A program made the position numbers and the translations under genes. This document shows positions 2,631-19,443 of a stretch of DNA of 64,000 nt, piece by piece. This DNA is from Thermoplasmata archaeon. GTDB lineage: Archaea > Thermoplasmatota > Thermoplasmata > Lutacidiplasmatales > UBA184. Location of the stretch: NCBI GenBank assembly GCA_028864975.1, contig JAGWLG010000016.1, positions 8,034 to 72,033 on the forward strand, written 5' to 3'. Position 1 is the first letter of the stretch, and the number at the start of each line of letters is the position of its first letter. The notes beneath the pieces are model-generated. The model was not told where the DNA came from and did no database searches. It saw nothing but the letters and a program-made list of their open reading frames with translations.

Positions 2631-2640
2631 AGGGTTATAC
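2631..2640 (+). promoter_or_regulatory. Archaeal BRE/TATA-like promoter for a leaderless GH25 gene
   Basis: Purine-rich GAAGGAGGG followed by TTATAC (2635-2640), about 25 bp before ATG 2662, in a very GC-rich context. Confidence 0.55.
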
Positions 2641-2661: not shown

Positions 2662-5193
2662 ATGGGCCACCGCGGCGGCGCGCCGTGTGGGGTACCTCGA
2701 GCGGTCCACCGGGAACCTCGGGACCTCTTCGTCGGCGTCGTGGTGCTCGTGGGGGTCGTCGCTCTCCTGGTCCTTCCGGGGGCGTTGGCCGCCCCTTCGG
2801 TGCGCGTCGCTACCCCCTCGCCCGTTCCGGCGTTCCACGGGGGGACCTCGTCCGTCCTGGGGTCTCCTCGAACTCCTCTCACCCGACTGAACGGGGTCGA
2901 CGTGTCCAGCTACCAGGGCGGGATCAATTGGAACAGCGTCGCATCGGACGGGATCGTCTTTGCCTTCACCAAGGCGACCCAGGGCGACTACTACATCGAC
3001 TCGACCTTCGCTCCGAACGAGCAGAACGGGCACGCGGCCGGGGTCTACGTGGGCGGCTACGACTTCGCTGACCCGGTCAACGTCGGGGCCGTGACGGAGG
3101 CCAACTATTTCGACAGCGTCGCGGGTCCCTACTTCAAGACCGGGTTCCTCTATCCTGCCCTCGACCTCGAGCAGGGATGCGGGACGCTCAGCGTCACCGC
3201 GCTCTCCGACTGGACGAACACGTGGATGAGGACGGTCCAGTCCTACATCTCCGCCCACGGGTTCAACATCGTTCCGATCGTCTACATGAACAGCAACTAC
3301 GCCAACAACTGTGTCGATTCCTCGGTGGCCCAGTGGCACCTCTGGATCGCCGACTACTGCGGGGGATGCAACCCGAGCACCGGGGTCTTCCCATACTGGA
3401 ACTTCTACCAGTACTACGACTGCGGGTCCATCTCCGGGATCGGAGGCTGCGTCGATGTCGACTGGTTCGGCGGGGACCTCTCCGCGCTCCAGGGAGGCTT
3501 CGTCTTCGGTACGCCCCCCCTGACCGCGAGCTACTCGGTGGTGGACCGCACCACGGGGAAATCCCTCTACTGCGGCGATAGCTTCGCCTCGGGCGACACG
3601 ATCCAGTTCACGGGTAGCGCTTCGGGAGGCTCGCCGGGGTACTCGTTCGCGTGGGACTTCGGGGACGGAACGACCGGTTCCGGGAACCCCGTCAATCACG
3701 TTTACAACATGGTGGGGACGGTGAATCCCATCCTCACGGTCACGGACTCCAAGGGGGCGACCGCCAAGTCTGGGAGCGGGTGCGATTTCACGGTCACCGG
3801 GACCCCGGTGACCTTCTACACCCAGCCCCCCGGCGCGGCGACGATCCTCCTGGCGGGGAACCCGTACACGAACGGGCAGTCGACGATCCTCGTGCCGGGT
3901 CACAGCTATTCGCTGACCTTCGGCGCCTCCCCGTCCTACATCTTCTCCGGATGGAACTGGACGGGAGGGGTCACGATCTCTTCGCCGCTCTCCACATCGA
4001 CGACGCTCACCGTCACGAGCACCACGCCTGCGACGGTCACCGTCTCGTTCGTGACCCGGAGCTCGATCTACTTCCTGAGCTCTCCCAACGACAAGGCCTC
4101 GGTCGAGATCGGGGGGAGCATCTACAACAGCGGGCAGAACGTGACCGCCTCCGTCGGCACCCCGTACCCCCTGCTCGCCCTTCCGAACCCTGGCTACGTC
4201 TTCGTCCAATGGCAGGTCACGGGGACCGGCATCCAGGTCCAGTCTCCCGACCAAGCTTCCACGAACCTGACGGTCCTTTCCGCTGCATCCTCGACGCTGA
4301 CGGAGGTCGTCCTCTGGAACGTGCCGAAGGCTCCGACGGACCTGAACGTGATCGGGGCAACGAGCTCGTCGCTCACGCTCACTTGGGATCCGCCCCCCGG
4401 TGACCTCAGCGGCTACACCCTGGGGAGCAGCACGGGGGCGAGCCCCCCCAGTGGGATCGGCGGATTCCAGCTGACCTCCTTCGGAGGAGCGGGAAGCTCC
4501 TACGTCTTCACCGGGCTCGAGCCCCAGACGAAGTACTGGTTGTCGCTGGCAGGGGTGAACTCCACGGGGCAAGGTGGCTGGAGCGCCTGGACCTGGGGGA
4601 CCACCCTCGCTCTCCCGCAGCCCCCATCGGACCTGGTCGTGGACCGCCGCGGGAGCACCTGGGCCTACCTCTCGTGGCTGACACCGACCGGGGGGGCCTC
4701 GATCGGAAGCTATACTCTGAACTGTTCCACGAGTACCCCCGGGGCCTCCGACCGGATCGTCCCCGAAATCCCCACAAGTTCGACCGTCTACAACGCGACG
4801 GGGTTGACGGCAGGTGCGCATTATTCGTGCTTCCTGGTCTCGGTCTCAGGGGCGTACACGAGCCCGCCCTCCAACGACGCCGCCTTCACGCTCACCGGAG
4901 GAGCCGCCCCGCCTCCCTCGAACGGTGGCGGAGCTTGGTGGGAGGGCGTGGGGGCCTGGCTCCGGGGGACGCTCCGACCCCCGTTCGTCCTCGGCTGGGC
5001 GCTGGTCGCCGGGGCCGTGGTCGCCGCGGTGGGACTGCTCCTCTTGCGCAAGGGACGACATCACGGCGATGAGGACGACGCCGCGCTCGCGGAGGCTTTG
5101 GCCCGCCCCGAGCCTCCCGGCACGGTGGAACCGACCGGAAGTACGACCAAGGAACTCGAGGAGACTCGCCCGGGGCCCCCTGCCGGAAGCTGA
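2662..5193 (+). CDS. Membrane-anchored GH25 lysozyme/muramidase with PKD, Ig-like repeats, 2x fibronectin type III and C-terminal TM
   Basis: Signal peptide; GVDVSSYQGGINW, FAFTKATQG, PALDLE, LWIADY, FYQY and VDVDWF GH25 motifs; WDFGDG PKD; two FN3 domains (APTDLNV..SLTLTWDPP; PPSDLVV..AYLSWLTP); TM followed by RKGRHH. Confidence 0.92.
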   Translation: MGHRGGAPCGVPRAVHREPRDLFVGVVVLVGVVALLVLPGALAAPSVRVATPSPVPAFHGGTSSVLGSPRTPLTRLNGVDVSSYQGGINWNSVASDGIVFAFTKATQGDYYIDSTFAPNEQNGHAAGVYVGGYDFADPVNVGAVTEANYFDSVAGPYFKTGFLYPALDLEQGCGTLSVTALSDWTNTWMRTVQSYISAHGFNIVPIVYMNSNYANNCVDSSVAQWHLWIADYCGGCNPSTGVFPYWNFYQYYDCGSISGIGGCVDVDWFGGDLSALQGGFVFGTPPLTASYSVVDRTTGKSLYCGDSFASGDTIQFTGSASGGSPGYSFAWDFGDGTTGSGNPVNHVYNMVGTVNPILTVTDSKGATAKSGSGCDFTVTGTPVTFYTQPPGAATILLAGNPYTNGQSTILVPGHSYSLTFGASPSYIFSGWNWTGGVTISSPLSTSTTLTVTSTTPATVTVSFVTRSSIYFLSSPNDKASVEIGGSIYNSGQNVTASVGTPYPLLALPNPGYVFVQWQVTGTGIQVQSPDQASTNLTVLSAASSTLTEVVLWNVPKAPTDLNVIGATSSSLTLTWDPPPGDLSGYTLGSSTGASPPSGIGGFQLTSFGGAGSSYVFTGLEPQTKYWLSLAGVNSTGQGGWSAWTWGTTLALPQPPSDLVVDRRGSTWAYLSWLTPTGGASIGSYTLNCSTSTPGASDRIVPEIPTSSTVYNATGLTAGAHYSCFLVSVSGAYTSPPSNDAAFTLTGGAAPPPSNGGGAWWEGVGAWLRGTLRPPFVLGWALVAGAVVAAVGLLLLRKGRHHGDEDDAALAEALARPEPPGTVEPTGSTTKELEETRPGPPAGS

Positions 5194-5536: not shown

Positions 5537-8500
5537 GTGGTGGCCAGAACGCTCATTTACCACATGATTGGATGCGCACCCATGTACCACGGGCATCGCT
5601 CGCGGGTCCACCCCTCCAACGATGAGATCGCCACGGCTAGGAAGCTCTACAGGTCCGTGAGGGGGCCGCTCGGCCCACGAGGTTGCGCCCTCGCGTCGCT
5701 CGTGGTCCTTCTCATGGGGATCCCCCTCCTTCCGACCGCCACCGACGTCGGGGGCGCCGTGCGATCCCCTAGCGGCCACCTTGGCGACCCTACCTCGGCG
5801 GCTCTGATCGTCAAGGGGCCCGCCTCGCTGCTCGACGGACGCGCGGCGTCCACCGCCTCGACTCTGACCTCTCTGCCCTCCTCCTCCCCCTCTGGCTCCT
5901 CCTCGTCCGTCCCTCGATCCGGCCCTTCCGCCTCGACCCCACCCGCCTCCTCTGGCTCCCCCCTTACGGCGAGCGGTGGTTCGGTCGCTTCCGCGACACC
6001 CTCCCCCACGTCGAGCGCGGGAACCGAGCTCCTCCAAGGAGCTCAACGCTCGCTCGAACAAGGACAGGGGCCGGCCCGGGGCACCGCGTGGAACTGTGGT
6101 CAGCCCGCGGGAGGGGGGAGCGAGAGCTGTGCCGCCAGCTCTGGGTCTTCCGCCGACGTCCTCTCGGCCCCTTCGAACCCCAGTTGGGCCTTGCTCGGGA
6201 CCCCCTCCCCCCGTTTGGGGGCGACAATGGCCTTCGACCAGGCGGACAACGAGGTCGTCCTGTTCGGCGGCGAGAACTCGGCGGCGCAGGGGGACACGTG
6301 GACCTTCCGCGCGGGCAGCTGGAGCCCGGTGGTCACGCCGGTAGAACCGACCCCTCGCGGGTACGCCAGCATGGCGTACGATGTGGCCGACGGGTACGTC
6401 CTCCTCTTCGGCGGGGTCGCCCCAGGGGCCGGGTACCTTCAGGACACCTGGACGTTCAGTGCGGGCTCTTGGACCAAGCTCGCCTCCGCGACCTCTCCCG
6501 GGGTCCGCATCGCCGCCTCGATGTCCTACGACGCGGCCGACGGATACCTGGTGCTCTTCGGCGGGAAGGGGTGTTCCACCGCGAGCAGTTGTGCGGCGAC
6601 AGACCTTCAGGACACCTGGAAGTTCGTCGGTGGGGTCTGGGCGGAGCTCTTCCCCGCAAGCTCCCCCGGGATCCGGGAGTTCTCGATGGTGGGGTACGAC
6701 GCTTACGACGGTTACGTGCTTCTCTTCGGAGGATATGGGTGCACGACCGGGAGCTCTTGCTCGGAGGGGCTCCTGCAGGACACTTGGTCCTACAAGGCCG
6801 GGACCTGGAGCTTGGTCACCGGGAGCACGCCCCCGGGAACGCGGGAGGCCGCGGCGCTCGCTTACGACCCCACGATGAGCGGGCTCATCTTGGTCGGGGG
6901 GGACGGCTGCAGCACGGGGAACGCGTGCGCATCGTACTACCTCCAGGACACCTGGCTGTACCTCAAGGGGGCGTGGTCGCAGCTTACGCCGAACGCGGTC
7001 CCTGGGATCCGGGACCTGATGCCCATGGCCTACGATGGCGTGGACGGTTATCTCCTCCTGTTCGGCGGGCTCGGCTGTTCCGATGCCTCCTCTCCGTGCC
7101 CGATCTCCTACCTCCAGGACAGCTGGGTCTTCGCGGCGGGCACCTGGACCGAGCTCACCTCCCCCTCCTCCTCTCCCGGGGTCCGGGGGATCGCGACGCT
7201 GGCCTACGACCCTATTGACGGCTACGTGCTCCTCTTTGGCGGGTATGGCTGCGTCGTCGGGAGCACGTGCACCGCGGGGGATCTCGGGGACACCTGGACG
7301 TTCCAGGCCGGGACCTGGACCGAGCTCTTCCCGAACCCGTCGCCGGGGGCCCGGGACGGGTCGGCGCTGGTCTACGACGCGGCCGACGGGTACATGTTGC
7401 TCTTCGGGGGATACGGTTGCAACACGGGGAGCACCTGCACGCTCGCCGACCAGCAGGACACCTGGACGTGGGCGGGAGGAAGTTGGACGCAGCTCGCGCC
7501 GCCAGCTCCTCCGGGGGCGCGCGTCGCGCCCGCGATGAGCTACGACCCCACCGATGGCTACGTCCTCCTGTTCGGAGGGTACGGTTGCACGACCGGAAAT
7601 ACCGGTTGCACGTCGTTCCTTTCGGACACCTGGGACTTCCGAGGGGGAACGTGGACCCAGCTCGCGCGCATCGGTCCCCCACAGCGCTACATCGCGTCGA
7701 TCGCCGACGACGCGGCGGACGGCTACGTCGTCCTGTTCGGGGGTCTGGGATGCGAGAACTATCCCACCTGCTCCGCGTACGGGGAGCTCGCGGACACCTG
7801 GCGCTACGCGGGGAGCGGGAACTGGGTGAACATGACCTCGACGGCGGGGGGGCCACCGCCCGCGCGAGACGGGGCCGGCATGGCCTTCGACACGGCGGAC
7901 AACTATCTCCTCCTCTTCGGCGGCTTCAGCACGACAGGGTCCGACCTCTCGGACAGTTGGAAGTTCCTAGGGGGCAGCTGGACCGCGCTCTCCCCGACCC
8001 TCGCCCCCGGCGTACGACGCTACACCGAGATGGCCTACGACGGGCATGACGGGTTCCTCCTCCTCCTCGGGGGCAACGGCTGCACCTTCGGCACGTCGTG
8101 CGCCGTGAACTGGATGCAGGACTCCTGGGCGTATGGGGCCCCGCTGACGAGCGCTATGGTCGTCGCCTCTTCCGCGAGCCGCGACGTGGGTCAATCGGTG
8201 ACCTTCACCGCCGGGGCGACCGGCGGCGGGAGCGGCTCCTACCAGTTCCTATGGGCAGGGCTCCCCCCTGGGTGCGTTCCGACCTCGCCCGCCCCCGGGG
8301 TCACCTGCGCACCCACGACCGCCGGGACCTTCCAGGTCAGCACGGTGGCCGAGGACTCCACTGGAGCGCCGCAGGCGACCAGCGGGACCCTCGCGTTCAT
8401 GGTCTACAGCGACCCGACAGCCGCTGCGTCGGGATCGACCCCTTCCATCGACCTCGGCCAGTCGGCGACCTTCACCCTTTCCACCTCGGGAGGGTCGGGA

Positions 8501-11500
8501 GGCGATGGCTACGCCTGGAACGGCCTCCCCACAGGCTGTTCCTCCTCGGCGGGCCTTTCCGACACCTGCACGCCCGCGCTCGCCTCCGCCGAGGGGGCCT
8601 GGTCGGTCTCCGCGACGGTCACGGACTCGAACGGGTACTCGGTCAGCTCTGGGGGGGTCGCCCTCACCGTCGACTCCGACCCTTCGGTCGCGGCCCCCTC
8701 CGAGAGCCGCACCGCGCTCGACGTGGGACAGGTCCTGAGCCTCTCGACCACGGTGTCGGGAGGTTCGGGAGGATATGCCTTCACCTGGTCGGGACTCCCG
8801 ACTGGATGCAGCTCGGTGAATGCTCCGTCCCTGAGCTGCTCTCCGAGCGCGGCGGGGGCCTTCTCTTCGATCTCGGTCAGCGCGCTGGACTCGAACGGGG
8901 TGATGGGCGGCTCGCCCATTGCGGCGTCGATCACGGTGTCGGCCTCACTCGTGGTCCCGACACCCACCTCGTCACCCGGGACCCTGGACCTCGGGCAATC
9001 GACCACGCTCGCGCTCTCCCCCTCGGGGGGCCGGGCGCCGTACACGATCAGTTGGTTCGGCGTACCCACCGGATGCACGGCGAGCGGGACGAGCTTCCTT
9101 TGCACGCCGACGGCCACGGGAACGTACTCAGTCTACGCGACGGATGCTGACAGCAACGGCGCCACGGTGACGAGCGGCGCGGTCACGGTCAATGTGCTCG
9201 CCGACCCCCAGATCGTGAGCTTGGCCTCGAACCGTTCGGCCACCGACCTGGGGACCGGATTCACGATCACCGTCCAAGCCATCGACGGCACGGGAAGCTA
9301 CTCCTACACGTGGACCGGGCTCCCGCTCGGTTGTGTCGTCCCTGGCCTTTCGACGATCACCTGCAAGCCGACCGTCGTGGGTCCCTTCACGCTCAGGGTC
9401 TACGTCAACGACAGCACCGGGACGTCGACCAGCCAGACGCTCGCCCTGATGGTCGACAGCGACCCAACGACGACCGCGCCAACGGCGAGCCCTACCTCCC
9501 CGATCGACGCGGGATCGAAGGTCGTCTTCCAGACCACCGCGAGCGGCGGGAGCGGAGGCTACAGCTACACCTGGGTCGGGCTCCCGTCGGCAAGCTGCCC
9601 CGTGGCCATCGGGTCCTCGCTCGAGTGCGACACACTAGGAGTCGGCAACTACTCGGCCTCCGCGCTCGTCCGCGACTCGAACGGGGTCGGTTACGCGAGC
9701 GGCGCGCTCGCCTTCACGGTCCTCCGCGACCCGGTGCTCTCGAATGTCGTCGCGAACCGGACCGCCATCGACGTGGGGGCGCGAGTGATCTTCAACGCGA
9801 CGGCCTACCGGGGGCAGGGTCCGTACAGCTACGACTGGTCCGGTCTCCCGGCGGGGTGCTCGAGCGCGAACACCGCGATGCTTTCCTGCCTCGCGACGGG
9901 GAGCGGGAGCTTCAGCGTGGGGGTCTCGGTGGCCGACGCCGTGGGGGGATCCGCGAGCAGCACCACGCTCGGCTACGTCGTCTACCCCGACCCCTCGCTC
10001 TCCTCGCCCAGCGCGAGCGCGACGACCCTCGACTTGGGACAGTCGGTCGCCTTCTCGACGACCCTCTCTGGAGGGTCGGGGGGCTTCTCCTTCACGTGGA
10101 GCGGGCTCCCCGGCACGTGCTCCGGGACGGGCGGGTCCAGCCCCTCCTGCACCACGACCGCGGCGGGGAACTTCTCCATCATGGTCTCGGGCAAGGACTC
10201 GGCGGGGGCCTGGACCTCGAGCACTTCCCTCGCCGTGAGGGTCCTCAAGGACCCCGGCGTGACGACCCCGACCGCCGTCCCGTCGGCGGTGGACATGGGC
10301 GAGAGCACGACCTTCTTCGGATACGGGTGGGGAGGGGAAGCCCCCTACACCTATTCCTGGTCCGGGCTCCCCGCGGGGTGCACCTCGTCGAGCGCGGCCA
10401 GCCTGAGCTGCACGCCCACCTCGGCCGGAGGCTACACCGTGCAGGTGACGGTGACGGATGCGCTCGTCGTCTCCGCGACGAGCCCGACCCTCACGTTCAC
10501 CGTGTCGGTCGCCCTGGTGGTCTCCCCCGTGACCTTGAGCCCCGGGTCCATCGATGACGGGCAGTCGACCACCTTTTCGACCTCGGCCTCCGGGGGGGTG
10601 GCGCCGTACGTCTACGCCTGGGCCGGACTCCCTTCAGGGTGCCTGAGCGCGAACACCGCCTCGATCCTCTGCACGCCGTCCCCGTCGACCTCCGGCACGT
10701 TCTCCATCGTAGCCTCGGTGCGGGACGCCCATGGGATGAACGTGAGCTCGAGCCTGGCCTCTCTGACCGTTCTCGCGGCGGTGGCGGTGGGCGCCCTCAC
10801 AGCGACGCGGGGTTCCCTCGATGTTGGCCAGGCGACGACCCTCTCGGCGACGGCGGCTGGGGGGACGGGGGTCTACAGCTACACCTGGTCCGGCCTACCG
10901 ACCGGCTGCGGGAGCGTGAACTCGGCCACGCTCACCTGCACGCCCACCGGGTCGGGCACCTTCGCCAGCGTGGGCGTCCGGGCCACGGACACGAACGGCC
11001 AGGGCTCCTCGAGCTCGCCACTCTCCCTCGTGGTCGCTCCTGACCCCACCATCTCGATCCCCACCGCGACGCTCTCTGCCCTCGATGTGGGGCAGACGAC
11101 CACGCTCACCGTGTCAACCACGTCGGGAAGCGGTGGCCCCGTCTACGCGTGGGTCGGGTTGCCGGTGGGTTGCCCGAGCGCCAACGCGTTGAGCGTGGCC
11201 TGTACGCCCGCTTCGGGCGGGACCGGGACCTTCACCGTGAAGGCCTCGGTCGTCGACTCGAACGGCGACAATATCTCCTCCGGACCGCTGACGCTCTACG
11301 TCTACCCCGCGCTCGGCGGCGCAAGCCTCACCGCCACCCGAGGTTCCTTGGACGTGGGAGAGAGCACGACCCTCACCGCCTCCTCCACCGGAGGGTCGGG
11401 GGGCCTCATCTACGCTTGGAGCGGGCTCCCCAGCGGCTGCCCGGGAGGGAACGTGCCGACGGTCGCTTGCGTGCCCACGTCCCCCGGCTCGGTGAGCGTC

Positions 11501-13810
11501 AGCGTCGCGATCACGGACTCGAGCGGAGCGTCGGTGAGCGCCGGTGTCACGCTCACGGTCTACGCGGACCCGACCGTCACCACACCCGTGGCGACGCGCG
11601 TCAGCTTGGACCTGGGGCAGAGCACGACGCTCTCCTCCGTCTCGACCCCAGGCAGCGGCTCGCCGGTCTACGCTTGGCTCGGGCTCCCGTCAGGGTGCTT
11701 GAGCGCGAGCGTGCTCACCCTGAGCTGCACCCCCGCATCCGCCGGGACCTTCCTCGTTACGGTCTCGGTCCAGGACTCGGACGGGATGAACGTCTCCTCG
11801 GGAGGACTGACGCTCACGGTCGCTCCCGCGTTGGGGACCCCGGGGCTTTCGGCGAGCCGCAGCGCGGTCGACGTCGGAGAATCCACCTCGCTCCTGGCCT
11901 CCGCTTCCGGGGGGAGCGGCGGTTACTCCTACACCTGGACTGGGCTTCCCTCGGGATGCGTCTCGATCAACAACCCTACGCTCGGCTGCACGCCGAGCGC
12001 CGCTGGGACCTTCACGGCCGTTCTGGACGTCAGCGATTCGAACGGTGCCTCCTCGTCGGCCTCGATCGCCATCGCGGTCTCTCCCGCGCTCACCGCCGCG
12101 GTCCCGACCTCCTCGCTCGGGGGAGTGGACACGAACCAGAGCGCTACCTTGGCCGCCCACGCCGGCGGCGGGCTCGCTCCTCTGGTCCTCTCCTGGTGGG
12201 GCCTCCCCACGGGATGCCTCTCGAGCAATGCGGTGAACCTCGTCTGTGTCCCGAGGTCGTCGGGAACCTACCTGGTCTCCTACACCGTCGCGGACGCGAA
12301 CGGGCAGAACGTGAGCTCGGCGTCGCTGACCCTCGTCGTGACCCCTGCTCCGTCCACCCCGCTCCTCGCGGCCTCGCTGACGGCGCTCGACCTGGGGCAG
12401 GCGGCGGTGATCACGGCGGCCGTGTCCGGTGGGGCCCTGCCCCTCTCCTACGGCTGGACCGGGCTCCCGACCGGCTGTGCGTCCGTCGATTCCAGTTCGC
12501 TCACCTGCTCGCCCACTGCGACAGGGACCTTCTCCGTCGGGCTCGCTGTCGCCGACGCGAACGGGGCGACCTCCGCCGCCGTCCCGATCACGGTGACCGC
12601 CTTCGCCGCCCCCACGGTGGGGGCCCCTTCGGCCTCCCGCGTCTCGCTCGATGACGGGGAAGGGACGAACCTCTCGGTGGCCGCCTCCTCCGGGGGCGGC
12701 CCGCTCTCCCTCACCTGGTGGGGCCTGCCCTCGGGTTGTGCGAGCTCGAACGCGACCGCGATCTCCTGTGTTCCCGCCTCCTTGGGCACGTTCACCGTCT
12801 GGGTCGAGGCGGTGGACGCCCGTGGCGTCCTCGTACAGGGCCCGCCGCTCGTGCTCACCGTGGACGCTGCGCTGGGCTCGGCAGCGATCACGGCCTCCTC
12901 CTCCGCCTTCGACCTGGGAGCGCCGCTCACCCTGGGAGCCTCGGTGAGCGGAGGGAGCGGAAGCTTCGCCTACGACTGGACCGGGCTCCCGCCAGGGTGC
13001 GTGGCCGCGAGTTCGGCGACGCTCACGTGCACGCCCACCCGCGTGGGGTCCTTCACGGTCCAGGTCGGGGTCGCCGACGGGAACGGGGCCCGCACGTCCG
13101 CGTCCCAAGCCCTTCGGGTCTACGCGGCGCTCGAGGTGAACCTGACCGCCACGCCGCTCTCCGCGAGCGAGGGCACCACGCTGACGTTCTCGTCCTCGGT
13201 CTCCGGAGGGACCGGGACGATCAGTTACGCTTGGTTCCTGAACGGCACGCTCCAACCCGGAGCGGCAGGGCGGAACTTCACCGTCCCGAACGCCCACCCT
13301 GGAACGTACCAGGTCGCGCTCAAGGTCGCCGATGGATCAGGGAGCCAGGTGCTCTCGACCACGGTCTCGGTCGCCGTGAGCTCCACCAGCCCTCCCCCCA
13401 CCCCCTCCCCCGCGCCCGCGTCGCCCTCGCTCCTGGGTGGGCACGAGCCCGACGCCATCGTGGTGCTCTTGTTCATCCTGATCGCGATCACCCTCACGAT
13501 GGCGATCATCATGATGGGAGGACGGAAGCGACGGCGAGTGAGCGCCATCCTGCCTCCGATGGCTTCGGAGACGACCGCCCCCGAGCCCGGCTCGGCGGCC
13601 GCCGCCCCGGAGCCCACCGTGACCCCTCTGCCCTCGACACCCCAGGTCATTGTGGTGACGGGAGGGCCCGCACCCGTCCCGGGGGCCCAGGCGCCGCCTC
13701 TTCCACCCCCCGCGCCGGAGCCCCCCGCGCCCCCCACCTACGCGCCGCCCTCTCCACCCTCACCACCCTTGCCCAGGGGAGCTGAGGAGTACTCCGAGGA
13801 CAAGGAGTAG
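5537..13810 (+). CDS. Giant (~2750 aa) surface protein: 12 Kelch-like repeats, 19 Cys-stapled Ig-like repeats, PKD-like domain, TM, Pro-rich tail
   Basis: Single long ORF with typical codon use; repeated PxxR...MAYDxxDGYVLLFGG...DTW; repeated WxGLPxGC; hydrophobic helix followed by RKRRR. Exact start uncertain (GTG 5537 or a downstream ATG). Confidence 0.9.
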   Translation: MVARTLIYHMIGCAPMYHGHRSRVHPSNDEIATARKLYRSVRGPLGPRGCALASLVVLLMGIPLLPTATDVGGAVRSPSGHLGDPTSAALIVKGPASLLDGRAASTASTLTSLPSSSPSGSSSSVPRSGPSASTPPASSGSPLTASGGSVASATPSPTSSAGTELLQGAQRSLEQGQGPARGTAWNCGQPAGGGSESCAASSGSSADVLSAPSNPSWALLGTPSPRLGATMAFDQADNEVVLFGGENSAAQGDTWTFRAGSWSPVVTPVEPTPRGYASMAYDVADGYVLLFGGVAPGAGYLQDTWTFSAGSWTKLASATSPGVRIAASMSYDAADGYLVLFGGKGCSTASSCAATDLQDTWKFVGGVWAELFPASSPGIREFSMVGYDAYDGYVLLFGGYGCTTGSSCSEGLLQDTWSYKAGTWSLVTGSTPPGTREAAALAYDPTMSGLILVGGDGCSTGNACASYYLQDTWLYLKGAWSQLTPNAVPGIRDLMPMAYDGVDGYLLLFGGLGCSDASSPCPISYLQDSWVFAAGTWTELTSPSSSPGVRGIATLAYDPIDGYVLLFGGYGCVVGSTCTAGDLGDTWTFQAGTWTELFPNPSPGARDGSALVYDAADGYMLLFGGYGCNTGSTCTLADQQDTWTWAGGSWTQLAPPAPPGARVAPAMSYDPTDGYVLLFGGYGCTTGNTGCTSFLSDTWDFRGGTWTQLARIGPPQRYIASIADDAADGYVVLFGGLGCENYPTCSAYGELADTWRYAGSGNWVNMTSTAGGPPPARDGAGMAFDTADNYLLLFGGFSTTGSDLSDSWKFLGGSWTALSPTLAPGVRRYTEMAYDGHDGFLLLLGGNGCTFGTSCAVNWMQDSWAYGAPLTSAMVVASSASRDVGQSVTFTAGATGGGSGSYQFLWAGLPPGCVPTSPAPGVTCAPTTAGTFQVSTVAEDSTGAPQATSGTLAFMVYSDPTAAASGSTPSIDLGQSATFTLSTSGGSGGDGYAWNGLPTGCSSSAGLSDTCTPALASAEGAWSVSATVTDSNGYSVSSGGVALTVDSDPSVAAPSESRTALDVGQVLSLSTTVSGGSGGYAFTWSGLPTGCSSVNAPSLSCSPSAAGAFSSISVSALDSNGVMGGSPIAASITVSASLVVPTPTSSPGTLDLGQSTTLALSPSGGRAPYTISWFGVPTGCTASGTSFLCTPTATGTYSVYATDADSNGATVTSGAVTVNVLADPQIVSLASNRSATDLGTGFTITVQAIDGTGSYSYTWTGLPLGCVVPGLSTITCKPTVVGPFTLRVYVNDSTGTSTSQTLALMVDSDPTTTAPTASPTSPIDAGSKVVFQTTASGGSGGYSYTWVGLPSASCPVAIGSSLECDTLGVGNYSASALVRDSNGVGYASGALAFTVLRDPVLSNVVANRTAIDVGARVIFNATAYRGQGPYSYDWSGLPAGCSSANTAMLSCLATGSGSFSVGVSVADAVGGSASSTTLGYVVYPDPSLSSPSASATTLDLGQSVAFSTTLSGGSGGFSFTWSGLPGTCSGTGGSSPSCTTTAAGNFSIMVSGKDSAGAWTSSTSLAVRVLKDPGVTTPTAVPSAVDMGESTTFFGYGWGGEAPYTYSWSGLPAGCTSSSAASLSCTPTSAGGYTVQVTVTDALVVSATSPTLTFTVSVALVVSPVTLSPGSIDDGQSTTFSTSASGGVAPYVYAWAGLPSGCLSANTASILCTPSPSTSGTFSIVASVRDAHGMNVSSSLASLTVLAAVAVGALTATRGSLDVGQATTLSATAAGGTGVYSYTWSGLPTGCGSVNSATLTCTPTGSGTFASVGVRATDTNGQGSSSSPLSLVVAPDPTISIPTATLSALDVGQTTTLTVSTTSGSGGPVYAWVGLPVGCPSANALSVACTPASGGTGTFTVKASVVDSNGDNISSGPLTLYVYPALGGASLTATRGSLDVGESTTLTASSTGGSGGLIYAWSGLPSGCPGGNVPTVACVPTSPGSVSVSVAITDSSGASVSAGVTLTVYADPTVTTPVATRVSLDLGQSTTLSSVSTPGSGSPVYAWLGLPSGCLSASVLTLSCTPASAGTFLVTVSVQDSDGMNVSSGGLTLTVAPALGTPGLSASRSAVDVGESTSLLASASGGSGGYSYTWTGLPSGCVSINNPTLGCTPSAAGTFTAVLDVSDSNGASSSASIAIAVSPALTAAVPTSSLGGVDTNQSATLAAHAGGGLAPLVLSWWGLPTGCLSSNAVNLVCVPRSSGTYLVSYTVADANGQNVSSASLTLVVTPAPSTPLLAASLTALDLGQAAVITAAVSGGALPLSYGWTGLPTGCASVDSSSLTCSPTATGTFSVGLAVADANGATSAAVPITVTAFAAPTVGAPSASRVSLDDGEGTNLSVAASSGGGPLSLTWWGLPSGCASSNATAISCVPASLGTFTVWVEAVDARGVLVQGPPLVLTVDAALGSAAITASSSAFDLGAPLTLGASVSGGSGSFAYDWTGLPPGCVAASSATLTCTPTRVGSFTVQVGVADGNGARTSASQALRVYAALEVNLTATPLSASEGTTLTFSSSVSGGTGTISYAWFLNGTLQPGAAGRNFTVPNAHPGTYQVALKVADGSGSQVLSTTVSVAVSSTSPPPTPSPAPASPSLLGGHEPDAIVVLLFILIAITLTMAIIMMGGRKRRRVSAILPPMASETTAPEPGSAAAAPEPTVTPLPSTPQVIVVTGGPAPVPGAQAPPLPPPAPEPPAPPTYAPPSPPSPPLPRGAEEYSEDKE
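6203..8140 (+). repeat. 12 tandem Kelch-like blades (two predicted 6-bladed propellers), 9 with C-x(5-6)-C loops
   Basis: Counted from the translation, e.g. FGGKGCSTASSCAATDLQDTW, FGGYGCVVGSTCTAGDLGDTW. Confidence 0.85.
8141..13125 (+). repeat. 19 tandem ~88-aa Ig-like repeats with WxGLPxGC...C motif
   Basis: 19 occurrences counted, from FLWAGLPPGC to YDWTGLPPGC, most preceded by a D[LV]G[QE] and a GGxG turn. Confidence 0.85.
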
Positions 13811-13929: not shown

Positions 13930-15024
13930 ATGACAGAATTGCCTCCGGAAGCCCGCCGCGCGGTGGGTCTCCTCCCGGGAGAGACGCTGGCAAGTTCTTG
14001 GCCCGCCGCCCACCAGCGACCTGGGGCCCCGAGCGGGTCGGAGGGCTTCCTCGTGGTGACCTCGAACCGACTGCTCTTCCTCCAAGAGGCCGGAGGGAGG
14101 CTCTCGAAGAGCTACCAGCCGGTCCCCGGACTCAGCTGGCCCCTCGCGACCCTGGGGGAGGTCCGGGTCGAGGAGAACCGAGGCAGGATGTCCTCGACCT
14201 CCTGGCTCTTGGTGCAGGGCGAATACTTCTCGGTGGGAAAGGGAGGGGCCCAGGAGAACTCGAGGGCGCGCTGGTTCCTCGAGCAAGCGCGCTCCCGCGC
14301 CGCCCGACCCCCTCCCTCGAGCCCGGCCCCGGTCACCCCAGGAACCTTGGCCCCGGTTGCGCCCTCGCCCCCGCCGCAGTCGGTGCCCTCGGCCCCCAGT
14401 GTCCCCCTTCAACGGCCCCCGACCGCCCCGAACGTTGTTGCGGCGGTCTCGGCGACGGCCGGGGCCCCCGCGCAGCCTTCCTTCGTCCGGGAGCCCACCC
14501 CACACGCCGCCCTCTCTGAGCCCCCCAGAGCGGAGTCGGCCCACGGCCTCTCTGTCCCCGGATTCCCCACCTGGCCCATGGTGCCGATCACCATCGTGGA
14601 GACCCCGGAGCCCAGCAAGTTCTGGAGCATCGTGGGGTCCTCCGGGGTCGAGCGCGACAAGATGCTCGTGTTCTGCACCGAATCTCCCGGGGAGCTCTCC
14701 GCCTCGTATGGGCTCGCGGGCGCGACCCTGTGGCGCATTGCGAGCAGCGAGGGCGAAGGGAAGGTGAAGCCCGGAGACGTGGACCGACTGGGGCTCTTGA
14801 TCGAGGACCACTTCGCCCAGGCAAGCGGGCAAGCCGTGGTCCTCAAGGGCCTCGACCGGATCATCGAGGAGGCGGGGTTCCGCGGCGCTAGGCGGCTGCT
14901 CGAGGTGGCGCGCGAGGTCGCTGAGAAGACCCGGGGTGCGGTGATCGTCCACGTCGACCCCATCCTCGTCGGCCCGAAGGAGATCCACCAGCTCGAGGAG
15001 GACGGCAAGGTCCTCAAGCTCTGA
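13930..15024 (+). CDS. PH-like N-terminal domain, Pro-rich linker, C-terminal DUF835-like domain
   Basis: GFLVVTSNRLLF resembles bacterial/archaeal PH domains; the C-terminus (LVFCTESP..LWRI..VVLKGLDRII..GAVIVHVDP..EIHQLE) resembles DUF835. Confidence 0.7.
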   Translation: MTELPPEARRAVGLLPGETLASSWPAAHQRPGAPSGSEGFLVVTSNRLLFLQEAGGRLSKSYQPVPGLSWPLATLGEVRVEENRGRMSSTSWLLVQGEYFSVGKGGAQENSRARWFLEQARSRAARPPPSSPAPVTPGTLAPVAPSPPPQSVPSAPSVPLQRPPTAPNVVAAVSATAGAPAQPSFVREPTPHAALSEPPRAESAHGLSVPGFPTWPMVPITIVETPEPSKFWSIVGSSGVERDKMLVFCTESPGELSASYGLAGATLWRIASSEGEGKVKPGDVDRLGLLIEDHFAQASGQAVVLKGLDRIIEEAGFRGARRLLEVAREVAEKTRGAVIVHVDPILVGPKEIHQLEEDGKVLKL

Positions 15025-15561: not shown

Positions 15562-18500
15562 TCAGCGCGGGGGCGGGGGCGGTGGTGGGGGCCAGGAGGG
15601 AGGGGTGGGAGTGAACATTGGACCGTAAGGAGGGGGCACGCTCGCGCGCCGTCGCTTCCTCGCGAGGAGGACCGCGACGACGATACCCACGATGGCGACG
15701 GCCAGGACCGCCAGCACGAGAGGGCTCGTGAGCAGACCGACCAGGTCCCCAGCTCCTCCGTTCGATGGGGCGGGGGTGATGGTCACCTGGGCAGACCCTT
15801 GGGCGCTTTCACGACCCGTGGCCGTCACGGAGACGGTGATCGTCGCGGTGACCGTCGACGAAGGCGATGGGGCGGTGAGCTGCGCATCGAGCTTCCCGGC
15901 GGTGTCGGTAGCGCCGGAAGCAGGGGTGATGGTGCCCTGGTCCACCGTGAGGGCTAGGGTTGCTCCCGAGATGGGGGCGCCGCTCCCATCCGTCACCGAG
16001 ACCACAACGGCGACGGTTCCGCCCGCCGAGATCGTGTTCGGGGTGGGGGTGACCACGACGGCCATCGGGAGCACAACATACAGACGAAGCGTGCCACTTC
16101 CAGTGGTGTAACCGGGCTCGGACGCGTGGGCGGTCAGGGTTACCGTGGTCGCGGAGGAAGGGGACGGTGCGGTCAGAAGGAGGTCGACGGTCCCGTTCGT
16201 GGGGGTCGTCGCCCCCATCAGGCTGAGGGAGCCGGAGGTGACCGAGAAGGACTCAGAGGCGCCGGCGACAGGGGACCCCGCGCTCTCCAAAAGGGCATGG
16301 ACGGCCACCGTGCTCCCGGCGACCGCCTCGTAGCTGGCGGCGGAGAGGTTGAGCAAGAGCGGCGGCGCAGGGTCGATCTGCACCGTCGCGGTGAGCGTCG
16401 TCGGCGCGTACCCGCTCTTCGAGAGCGCGACCGAGATCGTGTCGGTCGAAGGAGATGCGACGCTCGACACGGTGAGGTTCGTGAACGCCGCGCCGGCGGC
16501 GGTAGAGGACGTTGAAGGAGGAGAGAAGGTCCCTCCCAGGCTGTCGGTGAAGGTCGCCGTGGCTCCCTGGATGGGGGTGCCGGAGGAGACGATGGCCACG
16601 GTGATCGCGGCGGGGAGACCCGCGGTCGTCGCTCCCGAAGGGACCGACACGCTCCCGGTGAGCACCGGCTGGTCGACGACCGCGGCGTAGACGCCTCCCG
16701 GATGCGCAAGGCTCGCCGAGGCGTTGGCCCACACATCCAGTGTAAGGGGGACCGAGGTCGCCGGGAGGGTGAAGTTCGACCAGACGCTGCCCCCCACATT
16801 GGTGGTACCGGAGGCGGGGGAGAAGAGATCGCCCTTCTGATCGGCGAAGGCGACCGTGGCTCCCGCCACGGCACCGCTGGTATCCGTGACGGAAGCATGG
16901 ACCGTGACATGGGACCCCGGATTGCCGGGGTTCGGGGTAACCGAGAGCGCGACCGAGAGCGTCGGCTCAGGGTCCAAGGTCAGCGTCGCGGTCCCGTTGT
17001 TCCCCGGGTGCCCTGGGGCGGTCGCGGCCGCGTCCACCGTGTCGGAGGTGGGGGTAGTCACCGAGGGGGTGGTGAAGTTCGCATAGGCATACCCCGCCGC
17101 GTCGGTCGTCGTGGAGGCGGGGGTGAAGGAACTCCCGCTCGTGTCCGAGAACCCGACGTTGGCCCCAGAGACCGGGGACCCGCTGGGGAGCGAGACGTAG
17201 GCAACAGCGGCGACGGTGCTGCCACCCACAACGGAAGCCGAGGGGGTCGGGGTGAGCGTGACCTGCAGAGGAAGCGGGTCGATGGTGATCACGGCCGTCC
17301 CTGACCCGGGGTTGTACCCCCCTGCGGTGGCCGACGCGGTGATTGTGTCGGAAGTTGCCGCGAGGACGGTGGGAGCGGTGAAGTTCGTCCAGGCGTTGCC
17401 GTTGGCCCCGACGGTGACGGGGTTGGGGGAGAAGCTGTCCGTGAGGGTGTCCGAGAAGCTCACGGAAGCCCCGGGGACCGGGACGCCGGCGGATGTCACG
17501 CTCGCTATGACGGCGACTGTCGAGCCGGAGGTCGCCGAGCTCGAGGGTGTGGTCGTGACCGAGACCGAGAGGGTCGGGGTGCCGCTCGGGTTGTAGATGG
17601 CTTCGAGCGGGGAACTCCCGTTCATGGCGACATTCGTGAGCGCGCTCATGGACGAGGCGAACATCCCCTGCCAGTGCGAGAAGGTGTAGCCGGTGACGCT
17701 CGCAGGGACCGAGATGTTGTGCACCGTTCCGCGGGTCCAGTACTCGGTCGACGGGAGGGCGGTCGAGACGCCGTCCACCGTCGCGGTCACTCCGGCGATG
17801 TTCGCCGAGAGGTCCAGCCAGGCGAGCTGCCCCACGTAGAGGTCCTCGTTCATGTTCCCCGTGACCCCATTGCGGAAGTCGGTCCAGACCGAGAAGTCCC
17901 CGGCGGGGCTCCAGAAGGTGTTCTCGTAGTCCCCCATGAACGCTGACCAGACCGTCGGGTTGCCGCTGACCGAGGAGACCCGGACGTTCCGCGCGAAGGT
18001 CTGCCCTCCATCCTTCGAGACCGCGACGGTGGTGTCGACGTAGAAGTCCCCGGGGACGTACCTCCGGTCCAGGAACTCGACGTAGACCGTGCCGTTCTTC
18101 CCGACGGCCAGCTGGGGGAACCAGTGGTCCGCTCCGTCGCTGGGGTCATTGTTGACCGAGATGGGGGAGCTCCAGCTAGAGCCGTAGTTCGTGGAGCGGA
18201 GCAGACGGATCTGAAGAGAGCTCACGTTCTCCGTGTAGACGATGTAGAGGTCGCCCTTGTACGGGCTTCCCGCAGAGGTGTCGCCAAAGATCTGGGGGAA
18301 GCAGTTCATCCGACCCACCCCCCCGATCGCGGGGAACCCAGAGCTTCCGGCCGGAGCACACGTGATCGACCCCAGGTTGGCCTCGGCGGAGAAGGCCCCG
18401 CCGGGGGCCGTGGCCCGCGAGAACTCGAGGTCAGAGCCGGTCGCTCCTCCCTCCCATACCACATCCACTCCGCCCGAGGAGTCGACGGCCAGGCCCGCGG

Positions 18501-19443
18501 CGACCATGTTCTGGTCCGAGGCGGAGTTGATGTGCGTGGGCCCCACCCACGAGGCCCCCTTGGTCGTGGAGTACCAGTAATCGATGTACGCCGTCGTGGA
18601 GCTGTAGTTCATCACGTCGATGGAGACGGTCCCGGTGCTCGGGTCGACCCCCATCCACTCCTTGTCCACCCAGTACGACCCAAAGTCCTGCTCCACGCGA
18701 ACGTAGTTCCACGTGAGCCCCCCATCGGCAGAGTGAGCGACGAAGAGCCCTCCGTTGGTGGCGACGCTCCCGGAGCATCGGCCGGTCTGGGCAGTGGGGT
18801 ACCCCAGGCCGGCGAAGTAGGCGGTACCGTCCGGCGCGAAGAACACGTTGGTGTCCCCGCCGAAGCAGGGGTGTCCGCCTGCGAAGGTCGTGTTCATCGC
18901 GGCGGGCCGATAATGCCAGGTGAGACCTCCGTTCGTGGAGGTGAACTCGCTGGCCCAAGAGCCCGAGGATCCTGTCGCGGCGGTGTCATAGTCGTTACCG
19001 GAGACGATGATGTCGAGCGGGTTGGTGGGGTTGACGGCGATCCCCGGTTCGTTCTGGGGCGTCGGGTCCCAGGTCGCCTGATAATTGATCCCGATCTTCG
19101 GGCTCACCTGCGGGGTCGCCCCTGGGGAGATCTCGGGGCCCGTGCGGAAGTTCGACGGGAGGTTCGCGAGGGGGTCGAAAGGACGAGGAGGAGCGCCCTT
19201 CGAAGCGAGAGCGGGGAGCGAGGTCCGCGCCAACGCTCCGGCGACAGTCGCGGGATGGACGCTGGCGACCGAGGAAGGGGCGGTCGCCTGAAGGTCCGGG
19301 GGCAGCAGCATGGCGGCTGCTGACATGAGCAGAAGTGCCACCACGAGGTCCTGGCGGACACCCTTACGCGGCTTTTTCGGAACCTCTGGGCGATGCGCGC
19401 AAGGACCACGTCGGTGGCTAGACACGGTCGACCGAGCAAGCAC
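15562..19443 (-). CDS. Surface protein: Asp-box (BNR, sialidase-like) propeller, 6 Big_1/invasin-like Ig repeats, TM, Pro-rich tail
   Basis: Asp-boxes STNGGLTW, SADGGLTW, STTKGASW, STNYGSSW, SKDGGQTF; six P[VI]xGAxVxF...T...G..F repeats; TM then RKRRR. Start uncertain. Confidence 0.85.
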   Translation of the reverse strand: MLARSTVSSHRRGPCAHRPEVPKKPRKGVRQDLVVALLLMSAAAMLLPPDLQATAPSSVASVHPATVAGALARTSLPALASKGAPPRPFDPLANLPSNFRTGPEISPGATPQVSPKIGINYQATWDPTPQNEPGIAVNPTNPLDIIVSGNDYDTAATGSSGSWASEFTSTNGGLTWHYRPAAMNTTFAGGHPCFGGDTNVFFAPDGTAYFAGLGYPTAQTGRCSGSVATNGGLFVAHSADGGLTWNYVRVEQDFGSYWVDKEWMGVDPSTGTVSIDVMNYSSTTAYIDYWYSTTKGASWVGPTHINSASDQNMVAAGLAVDSSGGVDVVWEGGATGSDLEFSRATAPGGAFSAEANLGSITCAPAGSSGFPAIGGVGRMNCFPQIFGDTSAGSPYKGDLYIVYTENVSSLQIRLLRSTNYGSSWSSPISVNNDPSDGADHWFPQLAVGKNGTVYVEFLDRRYVPGDFYVDTTVAVSKDGGQTFARNVRVSSVSGNPTVWSAFMGDYENTFWSPAGDFSVWTDFRNGVTGNMNEDLYVGQLAWLDLSANIAGVTATVDGVSTALPSTEYWTRGTVHNISVPASVTGYTFSHWQGMFASSMSALTNVAMNGSSPLEAIYNPSGTPTLSVSVTTTPSSSATSGSTVAVIASVTSAGVPVPGASVSFSDTLTDSFSPNPVTVGANGNAWTNFTAPTVLAATSDTITASATAGGYNPGSGTAVITIDPLPLQVTLTPTPSASVVGGSTVAAVAYVSLPSGSPVSGANVGFSDTSGSSFTPASTTTDAAGYAYANFTTPSVTTPTSDTVDAAATAPGHPGNNGTATLTLDPEPTLSVALSVTPNPGNPGSHVTVHASVTDTSGAVAGATVAFADQKGDLFSPASGTTNVGGSVWSNFTLPATSVPLTLDVWANASASLAHPGGVYAAVVDQPVLTGSVSVPSGATTAGLPAAITVAIVSSGTPIQGATATFTDSLGGTFSPPSTSSTAAGAAFTNLTVSSVASPSTDTISVALSKSGYAPTTLTATVQIDPAPPLLLNLSAASYEAVAGSTVAVHALLESAGSPVAGASESFSVTSGSLSLMGATTPTNGTVDLLLTAPSPSSATTVTLTAHASEPGYTTGSGTLRLYVVLPMAVVVTPTPNTISAGGTVAVVVSVTDGSGAPISGATLALTVDQGTITPASGATDTAGKLDAQLTAPSPSSTVTATITVSVTATGRESAQGSAQVTITPAPSNGGAGDLVGLLTSPLVLAVLAVAIVGIVVAVLLARKRRRASVPPPYGPMFTPTPPSWPPPPPPPPR

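Follow-up and report, generated by a model that had tools for sequence, protein, structure and literature searches.

A GH25 gene encoding a predicted surface-tethered muramidase belongs to a multi-copy archaeal subfamily in Thermoplasmatota

The GH25 gene and its surroundings

The window, i.e. the whole 64-kb stretch of DNA analysed, contains a complete coding sequence (2662-5193, forward strand; 843 aa plus stop) for a predicted type-I membrane protein that carries a GH25 domain as its head; all of the features given below lie on the same strand. The predicted signal peptide (residues 1-44, 2662-2793) was recognised from hydropathy and sequence by its basic n-region, hydrophobic core (residues 22-38) and ALA-AP site, with the hydropathy segment as a whole covering residues 22-46 and ending in ALA-AP. 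Cleavage would be expected at this ALA-AP-type site; neither a Tat RR motif nor a class III motif was found in the N-terminal signal. The GH25 muramidase domain follows at residues 76-277 (2887-3492), and was recognised by Pfam, the match to Cellosyl, the AF2 model and Foldseek.

Behind the head lies a series of Ig-like domains. The PKD domain (residues 288-378, 3523-3795) has a PKD_4 match at residues 306-369 (Pfam, E 2.6e-12), a model pLDDT of ∼90 and the invariant Cys304/Cys374. Next come two InlB B-repeat-like beta-sandwich domains (residues 381-552, 3802-4317), which are all-beta in the model with pLDDT 85-95 and contain a Flg_new_2/InlB B-repeat match at residues 483-538 (Pfam, E 3.6e-7), and then two fibronectin type III domains (residues 557-745, 4330-4896), seen in the model and in two Pfam fn3 stretches covering residues 557-740 (E 3.7e-21). 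A disordered linker containing Gly, Pro and Trp (residues 746-774, 4897-4983; pLDDT <50) leads to a predicted transmembrane helix at residues 775-795 (4984-5046; hydropathy 2.47, model helix 775-793), beyond which 48 residues form a putative cytoplasmic tail (residues 796-843, 5047-5190) consisting of an RKGRHH stop-transfer patch and an acidic, Pro-rich disordered end. The PKD/Ig/FN3 stalk and membrane anchor of the preliminary description were thus recovered by Pfam, hydropathy and modeling, as were its extra Cys pairs, of which we count five (C173/C217, C233/C236, C254/C263, C304/C374 and C688/C723).

Beside GH25, Pfam recognised only PKD, Flg_new_2 and fn3 in the protein, i.e. no recognised cell-wall-binding domain, so any targeting to peptidoglycan would depend on the catalytic domain alone. 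N-glycosylation sequons are not enriched in the stalk (6 observed against 4.8 expected), and we dropped the idea of a glycosylated stalk on this count. PEF- or PGF-like terminal signals are present in other GH25 proteins of Thermoplasmatota; this protein matched no NCBIfam PGF-CTERM or PEF-CTERM model and has 48 residues, not a short basic end, after the helix, and we therefore rejected it as an archaeosortase substrate.

A TATA-like hexamer, TTATAC (2635-2640), lies 27 nt upstream of the ATG and is a candidate promoter for a leaderless or short-leader mRNA. TTATA/TATAA is found only here on either strand of the window, where 6-mers with at least five A/T make up 0.35%. The TATA box proposed earlier as the gene's own promoter is therefore plausible, although the position of the element is not kept in the orthologues of the related genomes G001 and G002. 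An amino-acid permease gene precedes the GH25 gene on the same strand, 101 nt away; a conserved operon was rejected because the permease is not syntenic in G001-G003. A MAG of the same genus shows synteny for the adjoining DUF835 and Big_1 genes, and the flanks as annotated contained no phage genes. The other giant genes of the window share a common layout with the GH25 gene (signal peptide, head, Ig-like repeats, one transmembrane helix, basic patch and low-complexity tail), but their heads are Kelch propellers or unknown domains; a muramidase head is found only in this gene and its paralogues.

The GH25 head and its subfamily

The head belongs to GH25 by profile, acidic catalytic residues and barrel fold. 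Glyco_hydro_25 (PF01183) matched residues 79-260 over profile positions 1-180 of 180 (E 3.5e-33; 115.9 bits, cut-off 27). The best solved-structure match by both sequence and fold was Cellosyl (Streptomyces coelicolor muramidase M1, PDB 1jfx), a bacterial enzyme of 217 aa that consists of one domain, is secreted free and shares ∼30% identity with the domain here. It was found at E 1e-25 in a PDB sequence search, and Foldseek of the AF2 domain model (pLDDT 93.6) aligned it with TM 0.77/0.86 (0.86 by target) and rmsd 2.6; the top 22 Foldseek matches were all GH25 structures.

The Cellosyl-type acidic residues of the preliminary description were found exactly where it had placed them. Asp80 (2899-2901), equivalent to Cellosyl Asp9, is Asp in 43 of the 44 members of the clade described below and in 192/197 other domains; the catalytic DxE motif Asp168-Leu-Glu170 (3163-3171), aligned with Cellosyl D98/E100, is kept in 44/44; and Val264-Asp-Val-Asp267 (3451-3462) aligns with the Cellosyl C-terminal VD motif. 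Across D80, D168, E170 and D265/D267, 43-44 of the 44 members retain the catalytic residues, and the catalytic tetrad and most residues of the substrate face (Y133, Y208, W228 and Q250) are invariant. With dN/dS of 0.24-0.26 against the orthologues in G001 and G002, the domain is under purifying selection and looks catalytically intact.

Two features set the clade apart. Position 134 (3061-3063), at the C-terminal end of beta-strand 3 in the model, is Asp in 44/44 members as against His in 180/197 other GH25 domains, and Cys173 and Cys217 (3178-3312), probably a disulfide within the domain, are both present in 44/44 members and in none of 185-197 others. An Asp at this nearly universal His position on the active-site face could alter specificity. 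A C-terminal transmembrane helix is likewise typical of the clade (40/44 members, 20/185 other GH25 proteins).

The gene is one of four GH25 paralogues in the host genome. The domain is carried by 14/41 relatives and 15/186 genomes of the order, where it occurs in 14 MAGs that were binned independently of one another, on contigs of 100-596 kb, and its distribution within the family is patchy, with 149 of 150 genomes of one genus (g4) having no GH25. The family's copies formed one strongly supported clade (SH-aLRT 100, local support 99). The gene is therefore a member of a lineage-wide, multi-copy archaeal subfamily, and not the singular horizontally acquired gene first described. The phylogeny yielded a distinct, supported clade separate from the Aciduliprofundum boonei type. 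It did not place a donor; in a tree of 238 rows the backbone around the clade lacked resolution (sister support 44). On the matter of one or several acquisitions within the order, a single f1+f2 clade was not rejected by the AU test (p = 0.4). At E <= 1e-30 a search of the sequence library gave 4,472 hits. The nearest named bacterial sequences (Pedosphaera, a Verrucomicrobia bacterium and Botrimarina) were 39-44% identical; for the ten nearest proteins without a name, the one name recovered was 'Dehalococcoidia bacterium'. A scan of genome contigs for a donor returned only one distant Actinomycetota match, and an Atlas search gave mixed bacterial phyla.

The archaeal host and published counterparts

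The host is an archaeon: its 16S gave the archaeal SSU model as the top of its clan (1487.6 bits), it has TBP, and the proteins of its relatives, on contigs up to 596 kb, are labelled 'Candidatus Thermoplasmatota archaeon'. The bacterial contig that the preliminary description had allowed for was thus not supported. PBP and SEDS genes were absent from five genomes including that of the host, and the sole Mur_ligase_M match was FolC (TIGR01499, 306.7 bits; cut-off 162.65), which supports a host without peptidoglycan synthesis. The gene would therefore not be a bacterial autolysin, and the substrate would have to be foreign. A phage endolysin was also rejected, given the cellular flanks, the conserved synteny and the combination of signal peptide, stalk and transmembrane helix.

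Archaeal GH25 enzymes and archaeal peptidoglycan hydrolases have already been published. The A. boonei GH25, which co-culture induces, is lethal to Firmicutes (Metcalf et al. 2014, PMC4241558), and archaeal peptidoglycan hydrolases, present in ∼5% of archaeal genomes, kill bacteria (Strock et al. 2025, PMC12352652), so the finding is less surprising than it was first rated. The A. boonei protein (UniProt B5ID12) likewise comes from Thermoplasmatota, from a host without peptidoglycan, and has intact catalytic residues in a GH25 domain 45.5% identical to that described here. It is probably the 574-aa frame of genome G248, which matches the published 1725-bp gene and carries a signal peptide and a C-terminal PEF-CTERM-like anchor signal. 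The preliminary description had the enzyme held on a stalk rather than released; the signal peptide, stalk and helix agree with the first part, but the contrast with Aciduliprofundum is weakened by this probable anchor signal. The differences lie elsewhere: the A. boonei type combines GH25 with Amidase_6, two SH3_3 domains and the PEF-CTERM-like tail and has no Ig stalk, whereas the protein here has five Ig-like domains, a classical transmembrane helix and a cytoplasmic tail, with neither a second catalytic nor a wall-binding domain. The two fall in different supported clades, and the D134/C173/C217 signature and the multiple copies are found only on the side described here; we therefore rejected assignment to the A. 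boonei-type lineage, although a deeper origin common to both within the archaea would be compatible with the AU result above.

The hydrolases of Strock et al. (PMC12352652), e.g. Woldo/Danwoldo of Halogranum salarium, resemble this subfamily in being archaeal enzymes directed at a polymer made only by bacteria, and in their patchy distribution, their several copies in some genomes and their secretion signals. Those characterised are secreted M23 peptidases, in contrast to the membrane-tethered glycosidase predicted here. That survey demanded a Pfam cell-wall-binding domain, and in the archaeal GH25 proteins that it lists the partner domains are PG_binding_1, SH3_3 and the like, never PKD (PMC12352652); with only PKD, Flg_new_2 and fn3 beside GH25, the present protein is not a modular archaeal PGH in their sense, and the subfamily would have been missed for this reason. 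The terms 'anchored', 'tethered' and 'transmembrane' are absent from these papers. Among the papers searched, none brought Thermoplasmata, lysozyme and GH25 together, and none named the assembly or run accessions.

Predicted role and alternative readings

We consider the protein to be, with a probability of roughly 0.7, a surface-displayed muramidase with which the archaeon cuts foreign bacterial peptidoglycan near its own cell. It would be exported by Sec, lose its signal peptide and be anchored by the one C-terminal helix. Its five Ig-like domains (one PKD, two InlB-B-repeat-like and two FN3), an estimated ∼15-20 nm of stalk, would carry the GH25 N-acetylmuramidase head on the outside of the cell. 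D80, D168-x-E170 and D265/D267 would then cut the MurNAc-beta-1,4-GlcNAc backbone in the walls of bacteria without an outer membrane, in damaged cells or in sacculus debris touching the archaeal surface; a tethered enzyme cannot reach the intact Gram-negative wall. The tether would keep both enzyme and products at the surface of the producer. Peptide stems may be cut by a separately tethered companion, encoded on contig C64 of the host genome, in which LysM and NlpC/P60/Amidase_6 are combined with a C-terminal transmembrane helix; it would itself qualify as a modular archaeal PGH sensu Strock et al. 2025. NlpC/P60 was found in 10 of the 14 relatives with GH25, in one of them below the Pfam cut-off, and in 2 of the 27 without it, a co-occurrence that involves only 3-4 independent lineages.

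The least credible alternative, which we regard as close to negligible, is that a bacterial or viral contig carrying an autolysin or endolysin was mis-binned into an archaeal MAG. The host genome is indeed a MAG of 124 contigs (1.9% estimated contamination) and GH25 is a typical endolysin family. However, the subfamily recurs in the 14 separately binned MAGs on contigs named Thermoplasmatota, the DUF835 synteny is kept in a congener, and the identical 843-aa protein recurs on a 108-kb contig of a second NCBI assembly and in the Logan assembly of an independent run; the signal peptide, stalk and helix are also unlike endolysins, and phage genes were absent from the annotated flanks. It is also improbable, although less so, that the head has been re-purposed for a non-peptidoglycan glycan (either a surface or EPS polysaccharide made by the archaeon itself or another, environmental HexNAc polymer) and is no longer a muramidase. 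The clade-specific His134-to-Asp change at the active-site face, the private Cys pair and the missing wall-binding domain would fit such a change, as would four paralogues per genome if the role were envelope remodelling. To our knowledge, though, every characterised GH25 is a muramidase, and the invariant tetrad and substrate-face residues and the co-occurring LysM-NlpC/P60 protein point to peptidoglycan, while the patchy distribution, e.g. in g4, would be odd for an envelope housekeeping enzyme.

Within the muramidase reading the biochemistry would be the same whether the tethered enzymes were weapons or served mainly for feeding, i.e. necromass scavenging or necrotrophy, to which we give somewhat less than an even chance. 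Anchoring would privatise the products, allowing peptides and amino sugars to be captured by the producer, the companion would free stem peptides, and an amino-acid permease is encoded just upstream, albeit without synteny in the relatives. That several paralogues have been retained by purifying selection in different genera suggests something like a housekeeping use, and scavenging is named as an option in a PLoS Biology Primer (PMC12356512). However, MurQ was not found above cut-off in five genomes, nor Amidase_2, Amidase_3, M23 or GH20 in the host genome, which is 89.6% complete, so a complete catabolic route for muropeptide sugars is not visible. The 'contact-dependent antibacterial or predatory' role of the preliminary description is likewise conjectural, as sequence does not tell killing from scavenging. 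A larger picture, which is speculative and which we think rather unlikely, is that of a surface 'digestive' apparatus, in which several tethered GH25 muramidases of a private subfamily and the tethered LysM-NlpC/P60 protein, set among adhesin-like Kelch/PKD giants, would enable the archaeon to bind bacteria, break them open on contact and use them as food. If true, this would amount to an archaeon living by predation or necrotrophy on bacteria, a lifestyle so far undemonstrated.

Very few antagonistic or trophic interactions between archaea and bacteria have been documented. Conserved, multi-copy, surface-fixed lysozymes would add to the published secreted archaeal enzymes and would suggest that the degradation of walls within contact range is stably maintained throughout a lineage of Thermoplasmatota. 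They would also mean that archaeal peptidoglycan hydrolases are undercounted by surveys requiring a wall-binding domain. The distinct GH25 subfamily, with its Asp for His and its private Cys pair, is offered for enzymology and for studies of bacterial necromass turnover.

The tethered GH25 protein and its gene

The ORF at 2662-5193 (+), in a 64-kb window of ~68% G+C, is intact and encodes an 843-aa protein, P0001. Pfam assigned residues 79-260 to Glyco_hydro_25 (E 3.5e-33; 115.9 bits against a cut-off of 27, with the entire profile covered), 306-369 to PKD, 483-538 to an InlB-B-repeat-like domain and 557-740 to two FN3 domains. The preliminary description had proposed a GH25 domain retaining all of the Cellosyl-type acidic residues, and its nucleotide coordinates proved exact: D80 (2899-2901, +), the DxE residues D168-L-E170 (3163-3171, +) and the C-terminal acidic motif VDVD (3451-3462, +) align with Asp9, Asp98/Glu100 and the C-terminal VD motif of Cellosyl, the Streptomyces coelicolor muramidase (PDB 1jfx, E 1.1e-25). 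An AlphaFold2 model of the head (residues 60-300, 141-sequence alignment) had a mean pLDDT of 93.6, and its best structural matches were all GH25 enzymes; superposition on 1jfx gave TM scores of 0.77 (query) and 0.86 (target) at an rmsd of 2.6 Å.

The full-length model comprised the GH25 head (residues 76-277), five all-beta domains modelled with confidence (288-745), a disordered linker, a single helix (775-793) and a disordered tail, in agreement with the PKD/Ig/FN3 stalk and transmembrane (TM) anchor initially described. The extra cysteine pairs also held up, with 10 of the 11 Cys residues in obvious pairs (173/217, 233/236, 254/263, 304/374 and 688/723). The N-terminus, with its basic n-region, hydrophobic core (22-38) and ALA-AP site, reads as a Sec-type signal peptide, and the 48 residues past the TM helix consist of RKGRHH followed by an acidic Pro-rich stretch. 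Together with the helix, these features predict that P0001 is a type-I membrane protein. There were no matches to CTERM models, which ruled P0001 out as an archaeosortase substrate.

The gene had also been credited with its own TATA box. A TATA-like TTATAC does lie at 2635-2640 (+), 27 nt upstream of the ATG, and is the only occurrence of TTATA/TATAA on either strand of the window; however, its position is not conserved in the orthologues, so it is best regarded as a plausible, putative promoter. Apart from this hexamer, AT-rich promoter elements are difficult to discern in front of the neighbouring genes. Over half of the window is taken up by coding sequence for giant surface proteins of 1200-2757 aa (5537-13810, 15562-19443, 24754-28623, 28620-34001, 41357-47584 and 60357-63965, the third and fourth overlapping by 4 nt), which carry Kelch propellers and/or PKD/Big repeats and share the head-on-Ig-stalk design of the GH25 gene, but with other heads.

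Host genome and distribution of GH25 genes

The window lies on contig C54 of a 3.6-Mb genome (G000; 124 contigs, 89.6% complete, 1.9% contamination). On a bacterial contig the enzyme would be an ordinary autolysin, as the preliminary description pointed out, but mis-binning of bacterial or viral DNA is very unlikely because the evidence for an archaeal host is consistent. The SSU rRNA of G000 is won within its clan by the archaeal model (1487.6 bits), the genome carries a TBP gene, and close homologues of P0001, labelled 'Candidatus Thermoplasmatota archaeon' by NCBI, lie on contigs of up to 596 kb. In addition, the DUF835 and Big_1 surface-protein genes of the window both keep synteny with the orthologous GH25 gene of a MAG from the same genus, and a protein identical to P0001 occurs in another NCBI assembly, on a 108-kb contig, as well as in a Logan assembly of an independent run. 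The DUF835 gene (13930-15024, +) is syntenic with GH25 and Big_1 genes in two compared genomes, G001 and G002; the 2757-aa Kelch protein that lies between them in G000 is missing from that position in G001.

The preliminary description had also stated that the host group lacks peptidoglycan. Neither a penicillin-binding transpeptidase nor a SEDS polymerase was found in G000 and four relatives, and the one gene resembling a Mur ligase is FolC (TIGR01499, 306.7 bits; cut-off 162.65). The host is therefore predicted to synthesize neither murein nor pseudomurein, leaving the GH25 enzyme without a self substrate.

G000 has four GH25 genes, of which the three complete ones are alike (signal peptide, GH25, Ig-like stalk, TM and tail) and the fourth is interrupted by a contig end. 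The domain occurs in 14 of 41 relatives (G000 included), i.e. in all searched genomes of genera g1, g3 and g8 and in one of three in g7, in 15/186 genomes of the whole order, in 1/150 of the large genus g4, and phylum-wide in 15/401 genomes and 10/162 genera. The sole g7 copy hardly differs from the g1 orthologue in G002 (dN 0.012, dS 0.052) and lies on an 8.2-kb contig of a bin estimated to be contaminated at 7%; the contig was probably mis-binned, so that the gene would not belong to g7.

A maximum-likelihood tree of 85 domains placed the copies from the host's family and 16 unnamed metagenomic proteins in one clade (SH-aLRT 100%) containing four paralogue lineages; after 150 library representatives were added, the clade had 44 members and 99% support. 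All 44 have Asp at residue 134, a position occupied by His in 180 of 197 other domains, and all share Cys173 and Cys217, a pair found in no other domain. The catalytic residues D80, D168, E170 and D265 are retained by 43-44 of the 44, and dN/dS between P0001 and its G001 and G002 orthologues (64% identity) was 0.24-0.26 in the GH25 head and 0.24-0.55 elsewhere. A C-terminal TM is present in 40/44 members versus 20/185 other GH25 proteins, and three of the four members without one are fragments. The A. boonei group falls outside the clade, as do the 1603-aa proteins of the sister family, whose GH25 domain is C-terminal; the backbone around the clade is unresolved, and an AU test did not reject the clade and sister-family copies as one group (p = 0.4). 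These 1603-aa proteins (L022:1345-6156 (+), L023 and L010; genus g8) carry GH25 at the extreme C-terminus as their sole Pfam domain, with none else in 1400 residues, and their only hydrophobic segment is N-terminal; in the G029 copy there is a single in-frame TAG.

Comparison with published archaeal lysozymes

Antibacterial activity of an archaeal GH25 enzyme was published in 2014 for Aciduliprofundum boonei, whose gene is 1725 bp, i.e. 574 aa plus stop (PMC4241558). A hit from the phylum-level search, L039:430-2151 (-), lies in G248, a complete 1.5-Mb genome on a single contig. We infer that it belongs to A. boonei or to an organism very close to it, its 574-aa frame matching that gene in length. 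Its product has a signal peptide, GH25, Amidase_6 and two SH3_3 domains, and ends in VPEF-hydrophobic-KRK, scoring 20.4 bits with the PEF-CTERM model (TIGR03024), just below the cut-off of 23; the published lysozyme is thus probably surface-anchored too. Other Thermoplasmatota GH25 proteins have PGF-like C-terminal signals, and together these ends suggest that surface retention is the rule among archaeal GH25 enzymes, a point not discussed in the 2014 paper (PMC4241558). The earlier view of a GH25 enzyme held on a stalk rather than released agrees with the layout predicted for P0001, but retention as such does not appear to set it apart. Among the other Thermoplasmatota proteins, those from L041:340-2988 (+) (Amidase_6, SH3_3, GH25 and three PKD) and L048:1-2262 (+) (NosD beta-helix and GH25) differ in architecture, and both have PGF-type sorting-like C-terminal signals, one scoring 23.4 bits with the Heimdall-CTERM model (cut-off 24).

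Compared with the probable A. boonei protein, with its Amidase_6, paired SH3_3 domains and PEF-CTERM-like end, P0001 has a classical TM with a cytoplasmic tail and a long Ig-like stalk, lacks a wall-binding domain and a second catalytic domain, and belongs to a separate subfamily. In 2025, modular peptidoglycan hydrolases were reported from 175 of 3,706 archaeal genomes by a survey that made a cell-wall-binding domain mandatory; the archaeal GH25 proteins it lists occur together with PG_binding_1, SH3_3 and domains of that kind, PKD being listed for none of them, and neither the survey nor its Primer mentions anchoring (PMC12352652). Given these features of the survey, and since no paper joining Thermoplasmata, lysozyme and GH25 was found in the literature searched, the tethered subfamily seems undescribed there.

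A companion enzyme and the likely role

G000 also encodes a 1089-aa protein (C64:61360-64629 (-), equivalent to L056:6361-9630 (-)) with a signal peptide, two to three LysM repeats, NlpC/P60/Amidase_6 (816-955) and, at the C-terminus, a TM with a basic patch. By its domains it is the second enzyme here that is directed at peptidoglycan, and it is tethered in the same manner as P0001. Its same-genus orthologues are 1130-1243 aa. Of the 14 relatives with GH25, 10 also have NlpC/P60 (in one case below the Pfam cut-off), against 2 of the 27 without GH25, a co-occurrence that is suggestive rather than statistical, as it represents only three or four independent lineages. A MurNAc sugar-salvage route is not evident, because no MurQ scored above its cut-off in five genomes and no Amidase_2, Amidase_3, M23 or GH20 was found in G000.

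The GH25 head might have been re-purposed with altered specificity, as the His134-to-Asp change and the missing wall-binding domain could indicate. We consider this unlikely, however, given the invariant GH25 active-site set, the LysM-NlpC/P60 companion and the patchy distribution.

The reading that we favour, with a probability of about 0.7, is that P0001 is a surface-displayed muramidase acting on foreign peptidoglycan near the cell. Sequence does not separate killing from feeding, and feeding as the main role of such a muramidase is a tentative proposal to which we give somewhat less than an even chance. Displayed at the surface, the enzyme would cut whatever foreign peptidoglycan comes within its range, and its candidate substrates would be Gram-positive-type walls, damaged cells and sacculus debris.
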